This document shows positions 13,206-25,447 of a stretch of DNA of 64,000 nucleotides, in pieces. Numbering within the stretch: the stretch's first letter is position 1; each line of letters begins with the position of its first letter. The stretch is from Coleofasciculus sp. B1-GNL1-01 (lineage in GTDB: Bacteria > Cyanobacteriota > Cyanobacteriia > Cyanobacteriales > Coleofasciculaceae). The stretch is taken from assembly GCA_040220235.1 (NCBI GenBank), contig JAVJTO010000082.1; one strand, given 5' to 3'. The notes beneath the pieces are model-generated. The model did no database searches. It was not told where the DNA came from and saw only the letters and a program-made list of their open reading frames with translations. The position numbers and the translations under genes are program-made.

Positions 13206-13256
13206 ATGGCACGTTTGTATGCTGATGAGCAGAACCATGTACTCAGCATGAGCTAA
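13206..13256 (+). pseudogene. Stub of the cognate DUF5615/PIN-like toxin
   Basis: MARLYADEQ, the usual N-terminus of the PIN toxins paired with DUF433, starts 3 bp after the antitoxin, then diverges and stops after 16 codons. Confidence 0.7.
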
Positions 13257-13265
13257 ATTTCCACT

Positions 13266-13721
13266 ATGAATGATCAGAAATTAAAACGGAAAATTATAGT
13301 TATAGATGTACCCAAGTATCATCAAGCAATGAGAGCTGTATTTGAAGATGCTTTGGCATATTTTGCTGGGTTTGAAGATTTTGATTTAATTGTAATAGAT
13401 GCCAATCACACAAATTTAGCCAATGGTAATTTATTATACAAAATACAGCAAGAAATAAACCCGAAAAGATTTGTCCATATCATCTACATACAAGGCTGGC
13501 ACTATATAAATGGAGTTAAACTATTAAGTTATTTGCGTACAAATAGTTTAATTAAAACTATCCCCATTGTCATTTCATCTGCTGATGATAACATTGAAGA
13601 TTTTATGAATAAGCAATCGGTTTTCTTTGTTTCTGTTCCAATTTGTCTTTACGAATGGGGTCAAACTATAAACAGGGCATTTAAATTGGCAATTTTAGCC
13701 AGTAAAGCACAGCACAATTGA
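13266..13721 (+). CDS. AT-rich degenerate receiver (CheY-like) domain protein
   Basis: KIIVID ... INGVKLLSYLRTNSLIKTIPIVISSA ... FVSVP resembles a receiver fold without the phospho-Asp and Lys. Confidence 0.5.
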   Translation: MNDQKLKRKIIVIDVPKYHQAMRAVFEDALAYFAGFEDFDLIVIDANHTNLANGNLLYKIQQEINPKRFVHIIYIQGWHYINGVKLLSYLRTNSLIKTIPIVISSADDNIEDFMNKQSVFFVSVPICLYEWGQTINRAFKLAILASKAQHN

Positions 13722-13780: not shown

Positions 13781-13819
13781 AGCTCAGTATTATAGCGTTG
13801 AGCGCTGGTGTATTTACAG

Positions 13820-14104
13820 ATTATGTTCAGAATTTACCCGACTTTGCCTATATGCGCGATCGCAGACGCTTGGTTGCAGAAACGTTGGCAGGTGTACCCC
13901 AAACGGTAAAGAATGCGAAATACAGACGGCTCAGGCGTTACCGGAGGTGCATCTTACACGAATCCTGAATTAGACTATATAGTTGTATTCCTAAAAGATT
14001 TGCCTGACTTTGGCAGTCTCCTTGTTCTCAATAGTAGGCAAATGCGGAGAGGCGATCGCGTGGCAATTATTCAGCATTCAGGCGGACACCTGAAGAAAAT
14101 CTCG
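13820..14104 (+). pseudogene. Fragments of an adaptor (EAD8-like)-trypsin/V8 serine peptidase gene
   Basis: 13820-13902 reads DYVQNLPDFAYMRDRRRLVAETLAGVPQ (adaptor-like N-terminus). 13955-14104, in another frame, reads YTNPELDYIVV.LKD.PDFG...RGDRVAIIQHSGGHLKKIS (trypsin-like LDY and IIQHP.G..K motifs). The catalytic His and GSSGS regions are absent. Confidence 0.6.
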
Positions 14105-14121
14105 ATAAGGATAGTTAGGCA

Positions 14122-15243
14122 ATGGCAATAAGTAACGATAGCCTTGAAAAATTATTGCCTCTACTCAGACCCTATTTACGGGATGAGAATGAGCGTCGAG
14201 CCTATTTGATCAGGGCGTTAGGCATGGATACACCTGTGTTGAATCGCCTGGTTTTAAATACACCTGTGGATTCTTTCATCACTAACATGGTGACGGAACT
14301 GGTTCGTTTAGGAAAAATACCCACTGGCAAACTAGCGCTTTGCGCCTTGTTGGAAGTGATTCGTGAAGATATGGGTGTAGACAACCGGGCAAAAGTAGAT
14401 AAACTACTTCAACAACTGCGAGAGGAGTTAACTGAGACACCTGTTGCTCAAGAATCGGTATCATCAAAACAAGACGCTCAAAATTTGCAGTGCGCTGTTA
14501 TCCTCACGGCTATTCCTATTGAATATAGAGCTGTTCGCGCTCACTTGACAAATCTCAAGGAAGAGATACACCCTGAAGGCACTATCTATGAACGAGGAAA
14601 CTTCTTATCTAATGGTCAATCATGGCAAATAGGAATTGTTGAAATCGGGGCAGGTAATACTGAGGCGGCTGTAGAAACGAAGCGAGCCATTGATTATTTT
14701 AAGCCGACTGTTGTACTCTTTGTGGGTGTAGCAGGTGGAATTAAACATGTTGACCTTGGTGACGTGGTGGCGGCAACAAAAGTTTATGGGTATGAATCCG
14801 GAAAAGTTGTCGAGGAAACGTTCCAACCTAGACCCAATACCAGCCTCGTAAGTTATCGTTTAGAACAGAGAGCTAAGGCTGAAGTTAGGAAAGAAGAGTG
14901 GTTAAACAGGATTGGAGAATCGATTCCAACACCAAAACCTCGCGCTTTCACAGGAGCCATAGCCGCAGGGGACAAAGTGGTGGCTTCAACGAAGTCTGAT
15001 GTGTATCAGCTTCTGCGGACAAACTATGGTGATGCGCTGGCGGTGGAAATGGAAAGTCATGGTTTTCTCAAGGCTGTTCGTGCTAATCCAGAAATCAATG
15101 CATTAATTATCCGTGGTATCTCCGATCTCATTGATGGTAAAAGCAATGCTGATGCGGCTGGCTCTCAGGAGAAAGCAGCACAACACGCTAGTGCTTTTGC
15201 ATTTGAAATCTTGGCAAAACTGTTAGGCGATGGCAATCAGTAG
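14122..15243 (+). CDS. Effector-associated-domain (EAD-like) + nucleoside phosphorylase/MTA-SAH nucleosidase-fold effector
   Basis: ~100-aa helical N-terminus shared with the next gene, then AVILTAIPIEY, GAGN, FVGVAGG, LGDVV, AVEMESHG, IRGISD motifs of the PNP/UDP fold. Confidence 0.88.
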   Translation: MAISNDSLEKLLPLLRPYLRDENERRAYLIRALGMDTPVLNRLVLNTPVDSFITNMVTELVRLGKIPTGKLALCALLEVIREDMGVDNRAKVDKLLQQLREELTETPVAQESVSSKQDAQNLQCAVILTAIPIEYRAVRAHLTNLKEEIHPEGTIYERGNFLSNGQSWQIGIVEIGAGNTEAAVETKRAIDYFKPTVVLFVGVAGGIKHVDLGDVVAATKVYGYESGKVVEETFQPRPNTSLVSYRLEQRAKAEVRKEEWLNRIGESIPTPKPRAFTGAIAAGDKVVASTKSDVYQLLRTNYGDALAVEMESHGFLKAVRANPEINALIIRGISDLIDGKSNADAAGSQEKAAQHASAFAFEILAKLLGDGNQ

Positions 15244-16330
15244 CGATATAATTCAAAAATTATTGCCTCTACTTAGACCCCTTATGGAGGATGAAAACCA
15301 GCGTCGAGGATACTTGATGAGGGCGTTGGGAATGGATGCACCCGTGTTACGTCGTCTTGTCTGGAGTACGCCTGTGGATGTTTTCATTACAGGTATGATC
15401 AAGGAACTGGTGATCTTTGGTGAAATTACCCCGGGTCAACCCGCGCTTTTGGCTTTGTTGAATGTGATTCGTCAAGATGTGGGTCGAGATATTCAGCTAC
15501 ACATTGATGAACTCATTGTAGAAGTTCAAACCCAACAGAACGTTCTCCCGATTCAAACGCCGCCTCATTTACTGTTTGATTTGCTGCTCATAATGGATTT
15601 TAAGCAGCAGGTGCGGTTGGTGAAAGAAGTCATGACATCACATCAAATCGCGGCTTTCTTGGTTCACGGTGAGGCTTGCTGCGGACAGCAACTTTTAGTG
15701 ACTCGATTATTCCGGTTGAAGCCACAGTGGAAGACGATATCGCCGATTAAGATTGATGTGAATCATAACGGTATCGGGAACAAGATTCCTCTCCTGTGGC
15801 GACGAGTGGCGGCTTGGTTTGGGTTGCCAAAAGAGGCTGAACCGAAAGAGATTATTGATCAAATTTGCGATCGCGTTTCCACTCAAGATGTTATTTTTAT
15901 CTTTGATAGCGTGGAGTATATGCTGCCCAATGTCCTGGTGGCGTGGCTTCAAGAGTTCTGGGAACCTCTGGTAAAACGAATTGAGCCAGAGTCCTGTCTG
16001 ACTCCAGAGGCAACCCATCTGTTAATGTTCTTGGTAGATCATAGAGGCAGCATTTGTCAATCAACGATTCAATTGGCACAGGAATGGGAGCAACCCGAAT
16101 ATCCTCGGATTCCTTTGCACTTGCCACCCGTGAGTCCATTTCCGCCAGATATCTTAGAGGATTGGCTAGATATGGTGACGGGATTTAGGGATATACAGAT
16201 ACCTGCGGGGTTAACCTCTCAACTCTTATTAGAGAAGTCAGAAGACGGGATTCCTGAATTTGTCTATGAGGAAATTTGTTGCCACTGCGGCTATGATTGG
16301 GAGGGAGAATTGGCAAAATGGTTAATTTAG
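15230..16330 (+). CDS. EAD-like + inactive STAND NTPase (iSTAND)
   Basis: Same N-terminal domain as the upstream gene; degenerate Walker A AFLVHGEACCGQQLL (GK replaced by GQ) and Walker B-like VIFIFDSVE; overlaps both neighbours. Confidence 0.8.
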   Translation: MAISSDIIQKLLPLLRPLMEDENQRRGYLMRALGMDAPVLRRLVWSTPVDVFITGMIKELVIFGEITPGQPALLALLNVIRQDVGRDIQLHIDELIVEVQTQQNVLPIQTPPHLLFDLLLIMDFKQQVRLVKEVMTSHQIAAFLVHGEACCGQQLLVTRLFRLKPQWKTISPIKIDVNHNGIGNKIPLLWRRVAAWFGLPKEAEPKEIIDQICDRVSTQDVIFIFDSVEYMLPNVLVAWLQEFWEPLVKRIEPESCLTPEATHLLMFLVDHRGSICQSTIQLAQEWEQPEYPRIPLHLPPVSPFPPDILEDWLDMVTGFRDIQIPAGLTSQLLLEKSEDGIPEFVYEEICCHCGYDWEGELAKWLI

Positions 16331-17235
16331 CAGATGCACTGGCGGCTAGTGGGAAACCATTCTATCAGGGTAAACTCATTTCACCTCAAGAGTGTCAGGA
16401 GAATGGACTCACGCCTTATTTACCCTCACCCGAACTGATTAATGCGGTTAATCTTGCCATCTTTCTGGAAAAACGCCCCCTGTTACTCAAAGGTGAACCC
16501 GGATGTGGTAAAACTCGCTTGGCGCAGGCGGTGGCTTACGAATTAGGATTACCCTATGAGCCTTGGTATATTAAATCTACCAGTCGGGCAAGAGATGGAC
16601 TCTACACCTACGACGCCGTAAGACGATTACATGATGCTCAACTGGTGCGGATGGGGGAAAAGAGTCAATCGAAGGTTGATGATTTAAATAATTATATTGA
16701 AATGGGAGCGCTGGGACGGGCGTTTGCTAATTCCCAGCGCACGGTGGTATTGATTGATGAAATTGATAAGGCGGATATTGATTTCCCTAACGATTTGTTA
16801 CGAGAGCTTGACGAGCAGCAATTCGCGATTGAGGAGACGGGAACGGAAGTTAAGGCAAATTTCCCTCCGATTGTATTTGTGACGAGCAACGATGAAAAGG
16901 ATTTACCCGATGCCTTTCTGCGCCGTTGTCTGTTTTATTACATTGAATTTCCTAATTCACAATTAACCGAGATTGTCAAGGCTCACTTTCCGGAATCATC
17001 GCCGGAGTTAGTCGAGGGAGCAGTGCAGCGTTTTAGGGAACTGCGGCAGACAATGGAGAAAGGGAAATCAGGAAAAAAGGTGAGTACCAGTGAGTTGCTG
17101 GATTGGTTTGCCGTGTTGCGTCAATTTCCTCAAGATCAGGTGTTGCAGCAGCTTGAGGGTAAATTGCCGTTTTCAGAAGTGCTGCTGAAGAAATGGGAAG
17201 ATCATCTACGTTATAGCAGTAGAGATATTTCTTAG
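16318..17235 (+). CDS. MoxR-family AAA+ ATPase
   Basis: Walker A GEPGCGKT, Walker B VLIDEIDKAD.DFPNDLL, TSN.EK.LPDAFLRRC, K.STSELLDW. Confidence 0.95.
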   Translation: MVNLADALAASGKPFYQGKLISPQECQENGLTPYLPSPELINAVNLAIFLEKRPLLLKGEPGCGKTRLAQAVAYELGLPYEPWYIKSTSRARDGLYTYDAVRRLHDAQLVRMGEKSQSKVDDLNNYIEMGALGRAFANSQRTVVLIDEIDKADIDFPNDLLRELDEQQFAIEETGTEVKANFPPIVFVTSNDEKDLPDAFLRRCLFYYIEFPNSQLTEIVKAHFPESSPELVEGAVQRFRELRQTMEKGKSGKKVSTSELLDWFAVLRQFPQDQVLQQLEGKLPFSEVLLKKWEDHLRYSSRDIS

Positions 17236-17250
17236 GAGAAACCGACTGGT

Positions 17251-17277
17251 GTAGAGACGTTGCATGCAACGGCTCTA
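17251..17277. repeat. REP-like palindrome gtagagacgttgcatgcaacggctcta (relatives ~25806-25830, ~62193-62217)
   Basis: Hairpin in the moxR-vWA spacer. Confidence 0.75.
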
Positions 17278-17315
17278 AATAACATAAATGTTCTGTTCGA
17301 CTCGAACCGTTAACC

Positions 17316-18407
17316 ATGAACCCCAATCAGTTACCACTGCTGGATATTTTTAACAGCCTGCGACAGCGCCATGGTTTGCCGTTGGGGGTGGATGAGTATT
17401 TAACAGTCTTGCGATCGCTTCAATCTGGCTTTGGTATAGGTACTCGTCAGGAAATCGAGCAGCTTTGCTGTCTGGTGTGGGCAAAATCTGAGGAAGAGAG
17501 TCGCCTAATTCGACGGCTATTTGAGCAAATGTGGCGGTATTCTCCAGATACTTCTGATCAACCTAAACCCTCATCTCCATCACCAGAGTCAGAAGAATCC
17601 TCGGCTGAAATACCCGAATCTGAACCCTTACCGGAATTGGAACCACAGCCCAATTTGACCCCAGAACCCGTGCAAGCTGTGCAAGCCGTGCGGAGTAGTC
17701 GGCGGGATAGGGAATTGAGACGCCCTCGCTATAGCCTACTAACTGAGTATTTCCCGGTGACTCGCCGACAGATGAAGCAAACCTGGCGTTATTTGCGTCG
17801 CCCAGTGCGGGAAGGAATCCCCACAGAATTAGATGTGGAAGCAACGGTGGCAAAAATGGGGCGTGAGGGTATTTTACTCGAACCCGTGCTGATACCTCCC
17901 CGTAAAAATCGGGCGGATTTGGTGTTAATGATTGACCAAGATGGCTCAATGGTACCCTTTCACCAGCTATCACGACAGTTAGTCGAAACAGCACAGCGCG
18001 GTGGACGGTTGAGACAGACCCGTGTATTTTATTTTCATGACTATCCTGATCAGTACCTGTATCGTCATCCCGCGATGTTGAATGCTCAATCGATGTCTGA
18101 GGTATTGGAAGAGATTGGAGAACGGGCGGTTGTACTAATTATCAGCGATGCAGGAGCCGCACGGGGAAATTTTGACCCAGAACGGATTGACAGCACTAAA
18201 GTATGGATTGAGCAGGTACAGCAGTCAGTACGGTATTGCGCTTGGCTCAACCCAATGCCGAATCAATGGTGGCAAAATACCACGGCTGGGGAAATTGCCC
18301 GTTTATTACCCATGTTTGAGATGAGTCGTCAGGGAATGAACGCGGCGATTGGTGTATTGCGAGGCAGATATATCGCTTGGGAGAGGATGTACTCATGGCT
18401 GCTGTAA
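17316..18407 (+). CDS. vWA (CoxE-like) domain protein
   Basis: ELDVEATV, MIDQDGSMVPF (MIDAS-like), FYFHD.P, IISDAGAARG, WLNPMP...W..T.A motifs. Confidence 0.92.
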   Translation: MNPNQLPLLDIFNSLRQRHGLPLGVDEYLTVLRSLQSGFGIGTRQEIEQLCCLVWAKSEEESRLIRRLFEQMWRYSPDTSDQPKPSSPSPESEESSAEIPESEPLPELEPQPNLTPEPVQAVQAVRSSRRDRELRRPRYSLLTEYFPVTRRQMKQTWRYLRRPVREGIPTELDVEATVAKMGREGILLEPVLIPPRKNRADLVLMIDQDGSMVPFHQLSRQLVETAQRGGRLRQTRVFYFHDYPDQYLYRHPAMLNAQSMSEVLEEIGERAVVLIISDAGAARGNFDPERIDSTKVWIEQVQQSVRYCAWLNPMPNQWWQNTTAGEIARLLPMFEMSRQGMNAAIGVLRGRYIAWERMYSWLL

Positions 18408-20137
18408 CATCTAATCCTAACCAAGCCCGTGCTAGGCGAGTTGCAGTTAAACGGGTTGAAGGGTTTGCCAAGCAATTTGGCGAAGCCCATCGAAACTTGG
18501 CGCGTCACGCCGCATTTCCCCTCTCACTCACCCCTGATTTGCTCTACCAAATTTGGGCAAACTTTGTCCCGGAAGCGCCTTGGGAAGCTGTAGCTCATCT
18601 GCTGCTGTCGCGCCTGTGTCGGCAGGTGGGGTATGAGATGTATGAAATGGATATAAGCGATCGAAATCTGTTATTGAGGGAATTAAAAGAGCAGTTTGGG
18701 CAAGAAAGATTAGACGAATTGGCTGAGTTTTTACTGGATTATGTAGCACAGCGACTGACTGATGATGATCCGGATACTCAGAGTTTAGCTGAGGCTCAGG
18801 AATGGACAGCGTTGGCGTATACTAAGCCGAATGAACTAGCGCGTGAATTGGCAGAGGCTTTGAGCGCAAGGGTGAAACAAGAGGATATGACAGAGGTGTT
18901 TCGTCTTACTTCGTTGGTAGAAACTTTTGCAGAGCCGTTGCTACAGGCAGGATTTGAACCATTATTAATTTACTCTCGCCAGATGAGCACTTTTGTTCGC
19001 GGTAATCATAAAGATGTAGAGGTTCAACTTGCCTTGTTAAAGCGAAAACCACATTACGTGCAGATTGCTGGAGTAAAATTACCTACTTTACGTCTCAATA
19101 CTCAGGATATAGTCTCCGAGCAGAATAAAGATGAACAACTACGTCAACTTATTACAGAAGTGCTTAAATATCCGACACAAAGTCTGGTGCGACGACAAGC
19201 AATGAATCAACTGCTCCGAACAATTCAAAAACTACCAGGATTAATGAAATCTTCGCACTTAGAGTATGAGTCTGCTCTACAGCAAACGTGGTTGAGCTTC
19301 ATCCAAAATATTGATAAATTTAATCTAAATAAACCTTCGCTTCACAAGGAATTAATACTATGGATAAATAACAATATTCGTCATGAAATTCTAAAATATA
19401 ATTTAGATGAATACAGAAAAAAACGAATGTCTGTTGCTGTTGATAATGTTGATGTTGCTGATTTTTTAATTGATTTTAATGATGGTTTAGAAGAAGTTGA
19501 AAGAATAAACAAACAGGATATTTCGCAAAAATTAAACTTATTTATGTCACATAGTTTTAGAAATATGCCAGAGGGATTGCAAAAAATTTACCAACTTAGT
19601 AAAGTTATTCAAATATTGCAAATAAATGATATTGACACGCCAGCTATATTTAAATTATCACGTCGTGAATATTCTATTAAACTTAAAGAATGCAAACGAT
19701 TATTATTGTTTAATTTAAACAAATGGAGTAGGACTAATTTAAACATTAATCTAGATTACAAAGACACAAATCAAGTTAATACTTTGGTCAATTATATAGA
19801 TGATTGGGTGATATCATATTGCCAGTCTTGTTTATATCAAACTTTACAAGATTTTCTACTTCATAAGTTAAGTCATGAAGCCCAATTCTTGCTCTCATAC
19901 TACAATCATAATTGTGACACACAAATACTAGCTCAATCTCTAAATATGTCAGAATCAGTAGTAAATCAAAAAATCACAATAGTTAAGCAAAAATTAAAAG
20001 AAAGGTTACAGGAATGGGTACAAGAAAATTTTGATATTTCTCTAGATTTATCAATAACCGTAGAAGAAAATATAGTTACATTTGTTGAAACATGGTTACA
20101 AGATATCTCAAACTGGAATAAGGATATTTGGTGCTAG
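18395..20137 (+). CDS. MoxR/vWA-system associated protein with an AT-rich, sigma-factor-like C-terminal region
   Basis: N-terminus F...FGEAH..LA.HAAFPL.LTPDLLY.IWANF.P.APW..VA.LLLS.LC..VG.E.YEM is typical of the last gene in cyanobacterial MoxR-vWA-iSTAND operons. The tail (DEQLRQLI.E...P..S..RR.A...L; YE.ALQQTW; two HTH-like ...L..W.....I.L...WL units) resembles cyanobacterial sigma-70-like proteins. Confidence 0.7.
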   Translation: MAAVTSNPNQARARRVAVKRVEGFAKQFGEAHRNLARHAAFPLSLTPDLLYQIWANFVPEAPWEAVAHLLLSRLCRQVGYEMYEMDISDRNLLLRELKEQFGQERLDELAEFLLDYVAQRLTDDDPDTQSLAEAQEWTALAYTKPNELARELAEALSARVKQEDMTEVFRLTSLVETFAEPLLQAGFEPLLIYSRQMSTFVRGNHKDVEVQLALLKRKPHYVQIAGVKLPTLRLNTQDIVSEQNKDEQLRQLITEVLKYPTQSLVRRQAMNQLLRTIQKLPGLMKSSHLEYESALQQTWLSFIQNIDKFNLNKPSLHKELILWINNNIRHEILKYNLDEYRKKRMSVAVDNVDVADFLIDFNDGLEEVERINKQDISQKLNLFMSHSFRNMPEGLQKIYQLSKVIQILQINDIDTPAIFKLSRREYSIKLKECKRLLLFNLNKWSRTNLNINLDYKDTNQVNTLVNYIDDWVISYCQSCLYQTLQDFLLHKLSHEAQFLLSYYNHNCDTQILAQSLNMSESVVNQKITIVKQKLKERLQEWVQENFDISLDLSITVEENIVTFVETWLQDISNWNKDIWC

Positions 20138-20524: not shown

Positions 20525-20779
20525 ATGAAAGCCATTGAACTAACAGGAACCCTGGATGAAACAGGTCAATTATCACTCGATCATCCCATTGAAAATGTTG
20601 CCCCTAGTCGCGTGCGAATTATTGTACTGTTTCCCGATGTTACCGAAGAAGTCGAAACCGATCCCGATGATACTCCCCTTGAAGAAGTGAAAGCAAGTCT
20701 CAGGAGAGCTTTACAGGAAGCAAAAGCAGGACAACGCATACCCCTTTCTGAGATGTGGGAAGGAATCGATGTCGAATGA
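20525..20779 (+). CDS. Putative antitoxin
   Basis: MKAIE.TGT.DE.GQL.LD.P...ASLRRALQEAKAGQRIPLSEMWEGID; TGaTATAAT at 20492-20500; overlaps the toxin start. Confidence 0.7.
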   Translation: MKAIELTGTLDETGQLSLDHPIENVAPSRVRIIVLFPDVTEEVETDPDDTPLEEVKASLRRALQEAKAGQRIPLSEMWEGIDVE

Positions 20780-21132
20780 AACGCCTTTAGTCAAAATCGA
20801 TTTAACACCAGAGTACAAACGAAATCTGCGGAAATTGTCAAAAAAATATCGACAGATACGCTCGGATGTTCAGCCAATTATTGAACAACTCCAAGGGGGT
20901 AACTTTATTGGCGATCGCATCCCCGGAATGAGTGAAGAATATGTCATCTTAAAGTTAAGGATTAAAAATAGCAACATTCAAAAAGGAAAAAGCGCAGGTT
21001 ATAGACTGAATCTATCAAGTTGAGTCACCGACGAATGTACTTCTATTAACAATTTATTCTAAATCAGACCAAGAAGATATTAGTCCTAATGAAATTCGTA
21101 GTATCTTAGCTGAGTTCGATGGGGATGAATAA
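20769..21132 (+). pseudogene. RelE/HigB-like toxin with a +1 frameshift
   Basis: Removing one A at ~21009 restores KGKSAGYRLIYQVESPTNVLLLTIYSKSDQEDISPNEIRSILAEFDGDE* (stop 21130-21132). A sequencing error cannot be excluded. Confidence 0.85.
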
Positions 21133-24523: not shown

Positions 24524-25314
24524 TTATTTTTCGGGTTTGTCACCTTGAATCAAAGCCTGAAACCGATTATCTCCTCGAAAATTATCAAAAGATGAATCAG
24601 TTTTTGCCATCTCTCGATACTCTTCAGGATTAAACTTAATGGCTTGTTTCAAGCTTTCAACGGCTAGGCAAATTCGATTGCTCGAACTAATCGTTCTTGT
24701 AGTGGCACATTTAACCGTTGGAATAGCTCATCAGCTTTTGGGGATTGCTCAATGCGCCCACCGTACATTTTGCTGTTTAAGTCGTCAATGAAAAACAGCA
24801 ATTTTTTATCCGTACCAATCTTATCCTCTGGAAATCTAGGGAGTGCATCCAGCCACTCACCACGCTTCAGGTGAAGAATTGTCCAGCCTTCAGTATTCAG
24901 TCTCTGTGCTAAATTTGCTGCTTCCCGCGTCTTACCGATTCCTGTCGGTGCGAGAATCAAAACCCAGCGCGATTCGTCCAGCTTTTGTTTCAATTCGTCG
25001 TGAATGCTACGCCCAGAAATTCGCTCCTGATATGGGATATTGTAATCAGCTAGCGGATCATTCGTATCACCACCAAGAATAGCTGGCAATACCTTACTTT
25101 GTGGTTTTATGACATCAAAAGGAAAAGTGTCAGGAAGAATTTGCCGCTGGCGACGTTGCTGGAGCATCCACCAGAATAAACGCACAGTTAGAGGTACAAT
25201 TCCAACGCCAAGGATGACGATGAAACTATCCTTGTTTTCACTGATTAATGTCAGACTGGTTTCCAGCAAGCCTTGCACCTGTTGTAGCCAAACGTAGAGA
25301 ACCTGGTTAATCAT
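24524..25314 (-). pseudogene. Internally deleted TM-P-loop ATPase-TPR gene
   Basis: The 5' part has a TM helix, Walker A APTGIGKT and Walker B LFFIDD, and stops at 24664. 24667-24524 in another frame reads LAVESLKQAIKFNPEEYREMAKTDSSFDNFRGDNRFQALIQGDKPEK*, a typical cyanobacterial TPR-protein C-terminal cap. Confidence 0.75.
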
Positions 25315-25447
25315 GGGAGGAGTCAAATAATTAAGAACCGCTCCTGAGCATCGCACTCTTTCCCACATTTTATCCGAGGAACTTTAAGTTGGCAGGCGTA
25401 CTGTTGCTGAGTTTAGCTCGATAAACTACACTCTACCTCAATGGTCT

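Follow-up and report, generated by a model that had tools for sequence, protein, structure and literature searches.

What does a bacterial operon do with both an enzyme of the nucleoside phosphorylase (PNP) fold and a domain resembling a sigma factor, and do the two make up a dedicated pair? We asked this of g1-g5, five genes at positions 14122-20137 of a 64,000-nucleotide stretch (the window, whose numbering is used throughout) of contig JAVJTO010000082.1 from the cyanobacterium Coleofasciculus sp. B1-GNL1-01 (assembly GCA_040220235.1). A preliminary annotation made from the letters alone (the sequence-only reading) had taken them for an intact MoxR-vWA-iSTAND conflict system and proposed that it couples nucleotide destruction to a transcriptional output. 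We found that the PNP and the sigma-like tail are interchangeable parts and no dedicated pair; the modules assort independently among close strains, so the idea of a selected combination finds no support. On balance we favour a modular anti-invader platform, in which the PNP would be the killing enzyme and the tail a non-transcribing decoy, acting either as a bait or as a poison of RNA polymerase.

The five open reading frames (ORFs) are stop-free and co-oriented on the plus strand. The first, g1 (14122-15243, 373 residues), encodes an effector-associated domain adaptor, EAD8 (about 14122-14436), followed by the PNP-fold nucleosidase (about 14497-15222), both assigned by Pfam. It is followed by g2 (15230-16330, 366 residues), an EAD8-iSTAND protein; g3 (16318-17235), a MoxR AAA+ ATPase of 305 residues counted from an ATG behind a GGAGGGAG; g4 (17316-18407, 363 residues), a CoxE-type vWA protein with no cargo of its own; and g5 (18395-20137, 580 residues), in which a vWA-L linker domain, split off the vWA gene (18395-19084), precedes the tail. 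The genes overlap by 14 nt (g1/g2), 13 nt (g2/g3) and 13 nt (g4/g5), and the only spacer, of 80 nt between g3 and g4 (17236-17315), contains a palindrome (17251-17278) resembling repetitive extragenic palindromic (REP) elements, with 123 matches of at least 20 nt on 51 contigs of the genome. This confirms the arrangement described before, overlapping genes interrupted by one REP-containing spacer. Close strains lack the spacer and have 26 nt instead, in all three public contig sets described below. Promoter and terminator scans stayed at chance level (22 versus 19.3 and 8 versus 7.5, respectively).

Profile scans bore out the ternary system with its EAD pair. EAD8 scored 76.2 bits on g1 and 73.2 bits on g2 (PF19961; cut-off 27), PNP_UDP_1 95.1 bits on g1, above its cut-off, and iSTAND (PF19995) 73.5 bits on g2 (cut-off 24), whose P-loop is degenerate, lacking Lys-Thr/Ser. 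The motor motifs are intact: g3 matches AAA_5 (51.7 bits, above its cut-off, E 1.2e-13) and retains both Walker A (residue 59) and Walker B (residue 143). At 305 residues, against 396 for the MoxR of a system with a fused vWA protein in the same genome (contig C97), it counts, by length alone, as a MoxR without VMAP-type N- and C-terminal extensions. VWA_CoxE matches g4 (46.5 bits, E 4e-12; cut-off 26.4), with a D-x-D-G-S motif at residue 206. The same EAD thus stands on a core component and on the adjacent cargo gene; the two copies share 59 of 100 residues pairwise, and g1's EAD8 is 68-91% identical to the cargo-gene EAD8s of loci L031, L034, L035 and L147, as against 56% to that of g2 in the multi-sequence alignment. 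The vWA-L of g5 is 41% identical to the linker part of the fused vWA protein in L066 and was matched in 32 of 52 family genomes; its split form is already described in the text of PMC8195603. Judged by these domains, the locus belongs to the published iSTAND MoxR-vWA ternary kind, vWA-MoxR subsystem 2 of Kaur et al. (2020, PMC7159879), a computational prediction. Its relatives and gene content likewise point to a cyanobacterial host.

Both cargos are exchanged independently among close strains. In the congener G017 (L031) both flanks match (96% and 93% in nucleotides), as do g1's EAD8 (94.5%) and the core (92-94%), while a TIR domain replaces the PNP on EAD8 and an AAA_35 STAND domain sits on vWA-L; similarity breaks near 14440 and at 19030-19090. 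On metagenome contigs where the same XisI gene comes after vWA-L, the tail is AAA_35 (L195, L211), PNP-WD40 (L210) or CHAT-DUF1822 (L196), but since XisI can be duplicated, L031 is the one locus tied to the site by both flanks. Of five congeners, G023 (98.7% in nucleotides) and G019 (92%) have EAD8-PNP, and no congener match among the best 150 of 307 covers the sigma tail; the PNP-WD40 tail also has a 97% identical counterpart on a G023 contig. The three public contig sets X1, X3 and X4, each from a different study, cover 12.7-18.8 kb, their long pieces being about 96-99% alike, and the joint from vWA-L to a PNP occurs in two of them. Depth over 19122-20024, the sigma tail, was 0 in X3 and X4 and 0.4-1.5 in X1, against about 70-180 over the core; the faint X1 depth may reflect a rare allele or stray matches and was not used. 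As EAD8-PNP occurs without the sigma tail in G023, G019 and all three contig sets, PNP plus sigma is one private combination. A joint between 14131 and 20161 (22-nt side) is probably an artefact of a repeat and was disregarded.

We analysed the enzyme at the first of these slots. In an alignment to E. coli MtnN, whose catalytic positions we take as the guide to residue assignment, the catalytic set of g1 is kept: E134, E309-M310-E311, R331, S334 and D335. D335 aligns with D472 of a 505-residue CBASS type III effector, the residue reported as mutated in Cap17 in the preprint text (10.1101/2023.01.24.525353). The PNP, about 30% identical to CBASS effectors, groups with CBASS and Detocs-type effectors in the best trees (93/100 with 29 rows; SH-aLRT 100 in a second tree of 19 rows, ten having been left out). 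Its close relatives are patchy (28 of 301 genomes). In a scan of 24 of the 29 relatives (L082, L084, L087, L098 and L099 lay outside it), 15 were fused to conflict-type domains, namely STAND/NACHT, TIR/SEFIR, SIR2, CHAT, HEAT, vWA, GUN4 and an AbiEii-like ATPase; two had CHASE2 and seven no second domain. Catalytically the PNP seems complete, and its type appears to be the immune (Cap17/Detocs) one, as the sequence-only reading had supposed for an effector; it is likely to cleave ATP as a nucleosidase.

The tail of g5 scores below curated cut-offs, both for TIGR02937 (25.6-28.1 bits; cut-off 42.9) and for PF04542 (13.5 bits; cut-off 24). A full HMMER search with the tail gave 151 hits, none covering the whole of it, and from these we built two family profiles. 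The first, from the short cyanobacterial ECF (extracytoplasmic function)-like sigmas that pair with DUF1822 and have six paralogs in this genome, matches residues 244-345 (E 1.4e-38; 19124-19429, sigma region 2). The second, from the C-half of a longer family with two sigma4-like repeats, matches residues 340-571 (E 2.8e-44) and spans two helix-turn-helix (HTH) modules, at 19487-19735 (residues 365-447, HTH1, degenerate at family-invariant positions) and 19817-20035 (residues 475-547). Both donor families adjoin DUF1822 genes. Structure models of the tail had pLDDT 95.5 (region 2) and 87.9. By the VIA structural aligner, region 2 best matched E. coli sigmaE (Z 9.2, root mean square deviation (rmsd) 2.2, 89 residues aligned), the first module WhiG sigma4 (Z 7.4, rmsd 1.5, 67 aligned), and the second sigmaH (Z 7.5, rmsd 2.0, 69 aligned) and sigmaE region 4 (Z 7.2, rmsd 1.8, 68 aligned); the region 4 scores (Z 7.2-7.5) are middling and backed by the profile matches. 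Foldseek returned nothing at an E of 0.001 or lower with either of the models. On profiles and predicted folds, the tail is a sigma2-sigma4-sigma4 chimera of two cyanobacterial sigma families.

In a genome survey with the tail, 141 of 401 genomes had a match at E 1e-8 or better, and the 150 of 190 genome matches listed were all to one tail half, save one weak longer match (24%, in a 580-residue frame). Word-index protein searches are no evidence of rarity, as the tail found itself alone among 1276 candidates though full HMMER shows relatives; the sigma of protein P0115, described below, likewise found itself alone among 3588. GC content falls to 0.23-0.30 after residue 305 versus 0.455 for the genome, and other vWA-L tails are at times AT-rich too. 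The frame stays open over 280 AT-rich codons, which none of 2000 shuffles did.

Does this chimera still read DNA? We compared the conserved columns of its families. The tail keeps 14 of 14 in regions 2.1-2.2 and 12 of 14 in helical parts, but 2 of 5 in region 2.3-2.4 (members keep 3-5) and 6 of 12 in HTH1 (members 7-12), segments whose helices, from solved sigma complexes, presumably read the -10 and -35 elements. Overall, 26 of 28 columns are kept outside and 8 of 17 inside these presumed DNA-reading segments (Fisher p 0.001), although the segments were picked after viewing the data, which counts against leaning on the test. An Arg present in 32 of 37 members, and in all four own-genome paralogs shown, is Glu in the tail, and a column that is Arg or Lys in 32 of 32 is Ile. 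The kept regions 2.1-2.2 only permit binding of core RNA polymerase and initiation. Of the sigma-like output proposed from the letters, then, the predicted folds of regions 2 and 4 hold up, while the scores lie below curated cut-offs and near-invariant residues of the presumed DNA-reading helices are lost.

We surveyed the same slots elsewhere. The 53 other loci with a readable tail had 21 cargo classes and five tails without a Pfam match (kin among them are not independent), and sigma profiles matched none of the 53 (tails cut by contig ends or unscanned were excluded: L040, L045, L047, L053, L065, L198, L199, L203, L208 and L209). Partners are thus highly variable and not of a housekeeping type, as the sequence-only reading would have it. 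The EAD8-cargo slot holds TIR, WD40, GUN4, vWA or unknown domains. PNP itself recurs in MoxR-vWA loci: L152 has it fused to vWA, L155 and L210 have it as a tail, and a distant form sits on EAD8 in L154 and L155. The founding papers (PMC7159879, PMC8195603) already name PNP as cargo of related systems, the former for VMAP and GAP1-N1 systems, though not in its iSTAND section; the supposedly unusual pair of outputs is no fixed pair. Outside the 53, two SAV_2336-type vWA proteins, P0115 (844 residues) and P0117 (962 residues), each have a complete short sigma for cargo, which looks intact in one of them and has diverged in the other, so sigma capture recurs.

Other host regulators occur as tails. 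In L038 (3698-5071, minus strand) vWA-L is joined to a whole LexA repressor that has neither an Ala-Gly site for cleavage nor the catalytic Lys and that might bait RecA filaments or phage antirepressors. Further unusual tails are an HTH with a RelA regulatory domain (L037, 3613-5202, plus), a histidine kinase with an altered H-box (L050, 8336-9844, plus), a pterin-binding domain (L145, 4213-5289, minus) and a CRISPR-associated Cas_APE2256 domain (L149, 2792-4489, minus); the sister histidine kinase tail has Gly after the phospho-His. We assume the usual roles of the LexA cleavage and catalytic motifs and of the kinase H-box, and on that assumption these sister tails, LexA and histidine kinase, are also crippled host regulators, which we count for a decoy.

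The mechanism that we lean towards would run as follows. A constant core (iSTAND scaffold, MoxR motor, vWA co-chaperone and vWA-L linker) would hold swappable cargo at two slots. EAD8-PNP would dock on EAD8-iSTAND by like-with-like contact and be kept off; upon invasion MoxR-vWA would remodel the complex with ATP and switch the PNP on, which would take adenine off ATP and dATP as Cap17 does, arresting the infected cell. The sigma2-sigma4-sigma4 tail would start no transcription but serve as a decoy copy of a host regulator. It is possible that it acts upstream of the PNP, as a bait for invader proteins aimed at sigma factors. It is also possible that it acts in parallel to the PNP, the released tail occupying core RNA polymerase as a dominant-negative poison. 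Either way it would be one recent allele among many and no co-evolved partner of the PNP. A more specific proposal, which we put forward only tentatively and consider rather unlikely in full, is that the tail is an 'integrated decoy' sigma mimic which catches phage anti-sigma or polymerase-hijacking proteins and so triggers MoxR-vWA remodelling, EAD8 docking and firing of the ATP nucleosidase. Ternary systems would then be guard-type receptors sampling crippled host regulators (sigma, LexA, RelA regulatory domain, kinases), with sigma captured at least three times (the tail, P0115 and P0117).

Several observations weigh against the platform-and-decoy reading. The approximately unbiased (AU) test did not reject a grouping of the g1 PNP with housekeeping MtnN (p 0.38, with three MtnN rows only), and the best curated (NCBIfam) match of the domain is MtnN. 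The slots are mixed in function: tails include PNP and caspase, and EAD8 can carry WD40, GUN4 or vWA; with enzymes and binders at both slots, 'tail = sensor' is no strict rule. The recognition helices have stayed basic, with net charges of +5 and +3 (0 to 7 and -3 to 4 across the family), so the tail may still bind DNA. We found no member of the ternary family with a tested phenotype in the literature. Finally, the locus has lost a gene: the EAD8-trypsin protease gene just upstream is decayed.

That loss (13813-14131, plus strand) is visible as three collinear pieces in different frames, the stop overlapping the start of g1. The pieces correspond to residues 13-43, 203-217 and 218-272 of intact 353-residue EAD8-trypsin genes (63-100% identical), which lie just upstream of EAD8-cargo or EAD8-iSTAND genes in L145-L149 and L201; other EAD8-trypsin-like matches in this genome are partial only. 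The locus is thereby of a six-gene type with a decayed protease. It could then be a decaying or unselected product of module shuffling, its activating protease lost and its sigma-like tail a passenger. An interrupted DUF5615 gene and a frameshifted relE also flank the system, broken copies are common in relatives and in this genome (the tail of the C151 system is split, and G019 has no core at this site), and the databases searched hold one record of the tail. But g1-g5 are all open, coupled and intact in their motifs, the same arrangement, with PNP but no trypsin gene, is maintained in G023 and in all three contig sets, whose listed insertions and deletions fall outside g1-g4, and the hydrophobic core of the tail is preserved at about 30% identity to its relatives. 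We regard decay as an unlikely account.

Alternatively, the tail could be a working chimeric sigma factor that is held on vWA-L and, once released, activates a regulon for defence or death as the PNP destroys nucleotides. The complete sigma2-linker-sigma4 order with confident folds, the full set of columns in regions 2.1-2.2, the basic recognition helices, the open frame, the apparently intact short sigma on the vWA protein P0115 and the linkage of ECF sigma plus DUF1822 to other conflict systems in the text of PMC8195603 all fit it. However, near-invariant residues of region 2.3-2.4 and HTH1 are lost, the locus has no DUF1822 partner, close strains swap the tail and keep the PNP, and a singleton chimera would require a ready-made regulon, which makes a working sigma factor quite improbable. 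A non-defence chaperone operon, in which the PNP would be a housekeeping methylthioadenosine/S-adenosylhomocysteine (MTA/SAH) nucleosidase and MoxR-vWA would help a client mature, would suit the MtnN signals above, blastp with E. coli MtnN finding g1 alone in this genome, and the lack of a PADLOC system for the core, but is very hard to reconcile with cargo swapped between strains 92-99% alike, the range of cargo classes, TIR replacing PNP at the same site and a PNP type found so patchily.

The neighbours of the operon include HNH, DUF433 and XisI genes, listed in the sequence-only reading, and a RelN antitoxin gene, all confirmed by profile scans; the RelE named in that reading scores weakly (E 0.031). 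The relE-like toxin gene (20769-21132) has one extra base near 21009 that shifts its frame relative to L211 and the three contig sets, and its RelN antitoxin is whole. After DUF433, a DUF5615 gene, present there in the congener locus L031, is cut after about nine codons (13206-13721) and followed by an AT-rich (31% GC) ORF of 151 residues with a receiver fold (Atlas TM 0.71); this stretch has a 98% copy in G023 and is present in X1, X3 and X4. 'Intact' therefore holds for the five ORFs, though not for the sixth gene, of which the trypsin remnant is left, nor for relE and the gene after DUF433. A Detocs-like reading that joins the receiver ORF at 13266 to the PNP was rejected: no sensor kinase lies among the neighbouring ORFs, and the G019 match to the window skips the receiver ORF and keeps EAD8-PNP. 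On the minus strand, at 24664-25368, is an apparently truncated ORF of 234 residues with an nSTAND3-type NTPase start.

Related elements were seen elsewhere. This genome has three more ternary systems: G000:C151:36589-41576, with an HTH-iSTAND and a split STAND tail; C44:71273-78583, with Trypco1, trypsin-EAD9, EAD9-iSTAND and an FGS tail; and C97:441-8778, with a long MoxR, a fused vWA protein and a tail resembling FGS. A 212-residue gene lies between vWA and vWA-L in L034, L035, L036, L037, L040, L047, L198, L201, L204 and L208, and belongs to the Uma2 family in the one copy scanned (L034). Short-family sigmas with a duplicated region 2 occur in P0002, P0013 and on G000 contigs C104 and C135, and others are fused to CHAT protease domains (P0027, P0033, P0079, P0088, P0141); these CHAT fusions suggest that the short sigmas, too, are a conflict module subject to shuffling.

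The prediction of ternary systems dates from 2020, and our literature searches found no experimental test of them. In the text of PMC7159879 the third component is modelled as the sensor and the vWA cargo as the effector, whereas in that of Doré et al. (10.1101/2023.09.22.558884) the vWA cargo is the sensor; the role of iSTAND is still termed proposed in a 2026 text (PMC12839542). The present locus offers a compact test of the two directions, with an enzyme at one slot that can be measured by ATP loss and adenine release, and a natural allele series, in which strains 92-99% alike have PNP or TIR at one slot, and sigma, STAND, PNP-WD40 or CHAT-DUF1822 at the other. If the sigma tail is indeed a bait, it would represent a bacterial guard/decoy strategy watching the transcription machinery.

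How, then, does the locus compare with known systems? PADLOC matched no system to the core, only single PNP and ATPase models. With iSTAND MoxR-vWA ternary systems it shares EAD-iSTAND, a short MoxR, a CoxE-type vWA and a separate vWA-L with variable cargo, as well as an adjacent second EAD copy on an enzyme, a cyanobacterial host and, in relatives, the upstream trypsin gene; unlike in those relatives, the protease gene is decayed here. For sigma cargo on vWA or vWA-L, the main text of PMC7159879 has no hits for 'sigma' (its Figure 1 source data, which may list rare architectures, lay outside the scan), two of its supplements have none for sigma or EAD8-PNP architectures, and literature searches did not find sigma cargo on vWA-L in print. 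The same paper counts 86 C-terminal domains for VMAP systems, a diversity from which new cargo is expected, and treats inactive decoy cargo as a theme (section 35). With Cap17/Detocs-type nucleosidases (Rousset et al., 10.1101/2023.01.24.525353), as far as that preprint's text goes, g1 shares the PNP_UDP_1 fold, the Asp aligned with D472 and relatives on NLR-like and TIR/SIR2 partners; in contrast to them, its regulator would be the EAD8 adaptor in place of a nucleotide-sensing or receiver domain, and no cyclase or sensor kinase occurs among the ORFs flanking the operon.

The tail itself stands closest to two arrangements. The text of PMC8195603 describes TRADD-N proteins that bear ECF-like HTH domains, and EACC2-caspase genes that have ECF sigma plus DUF1822 as neighbours; like such cyanobacterial pairs, both tail halves derive from DUF1822-adjacent sigma families. 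Unlike them, the tail sits fused on vWA-L, combines a short-family region 2 with the long family's tandem sigma4 half, has no DUF1822 neighbour and is degenerate at its presumed DNA-reading positions. P0115 and P0117, of the VMAP type, resemble it in that a vWA protein of a ternary system has a short-family sigma where cargo is placed, but theirs is a whole short sigma and no chimera, carried on a fused SAV_2336-type vWA.

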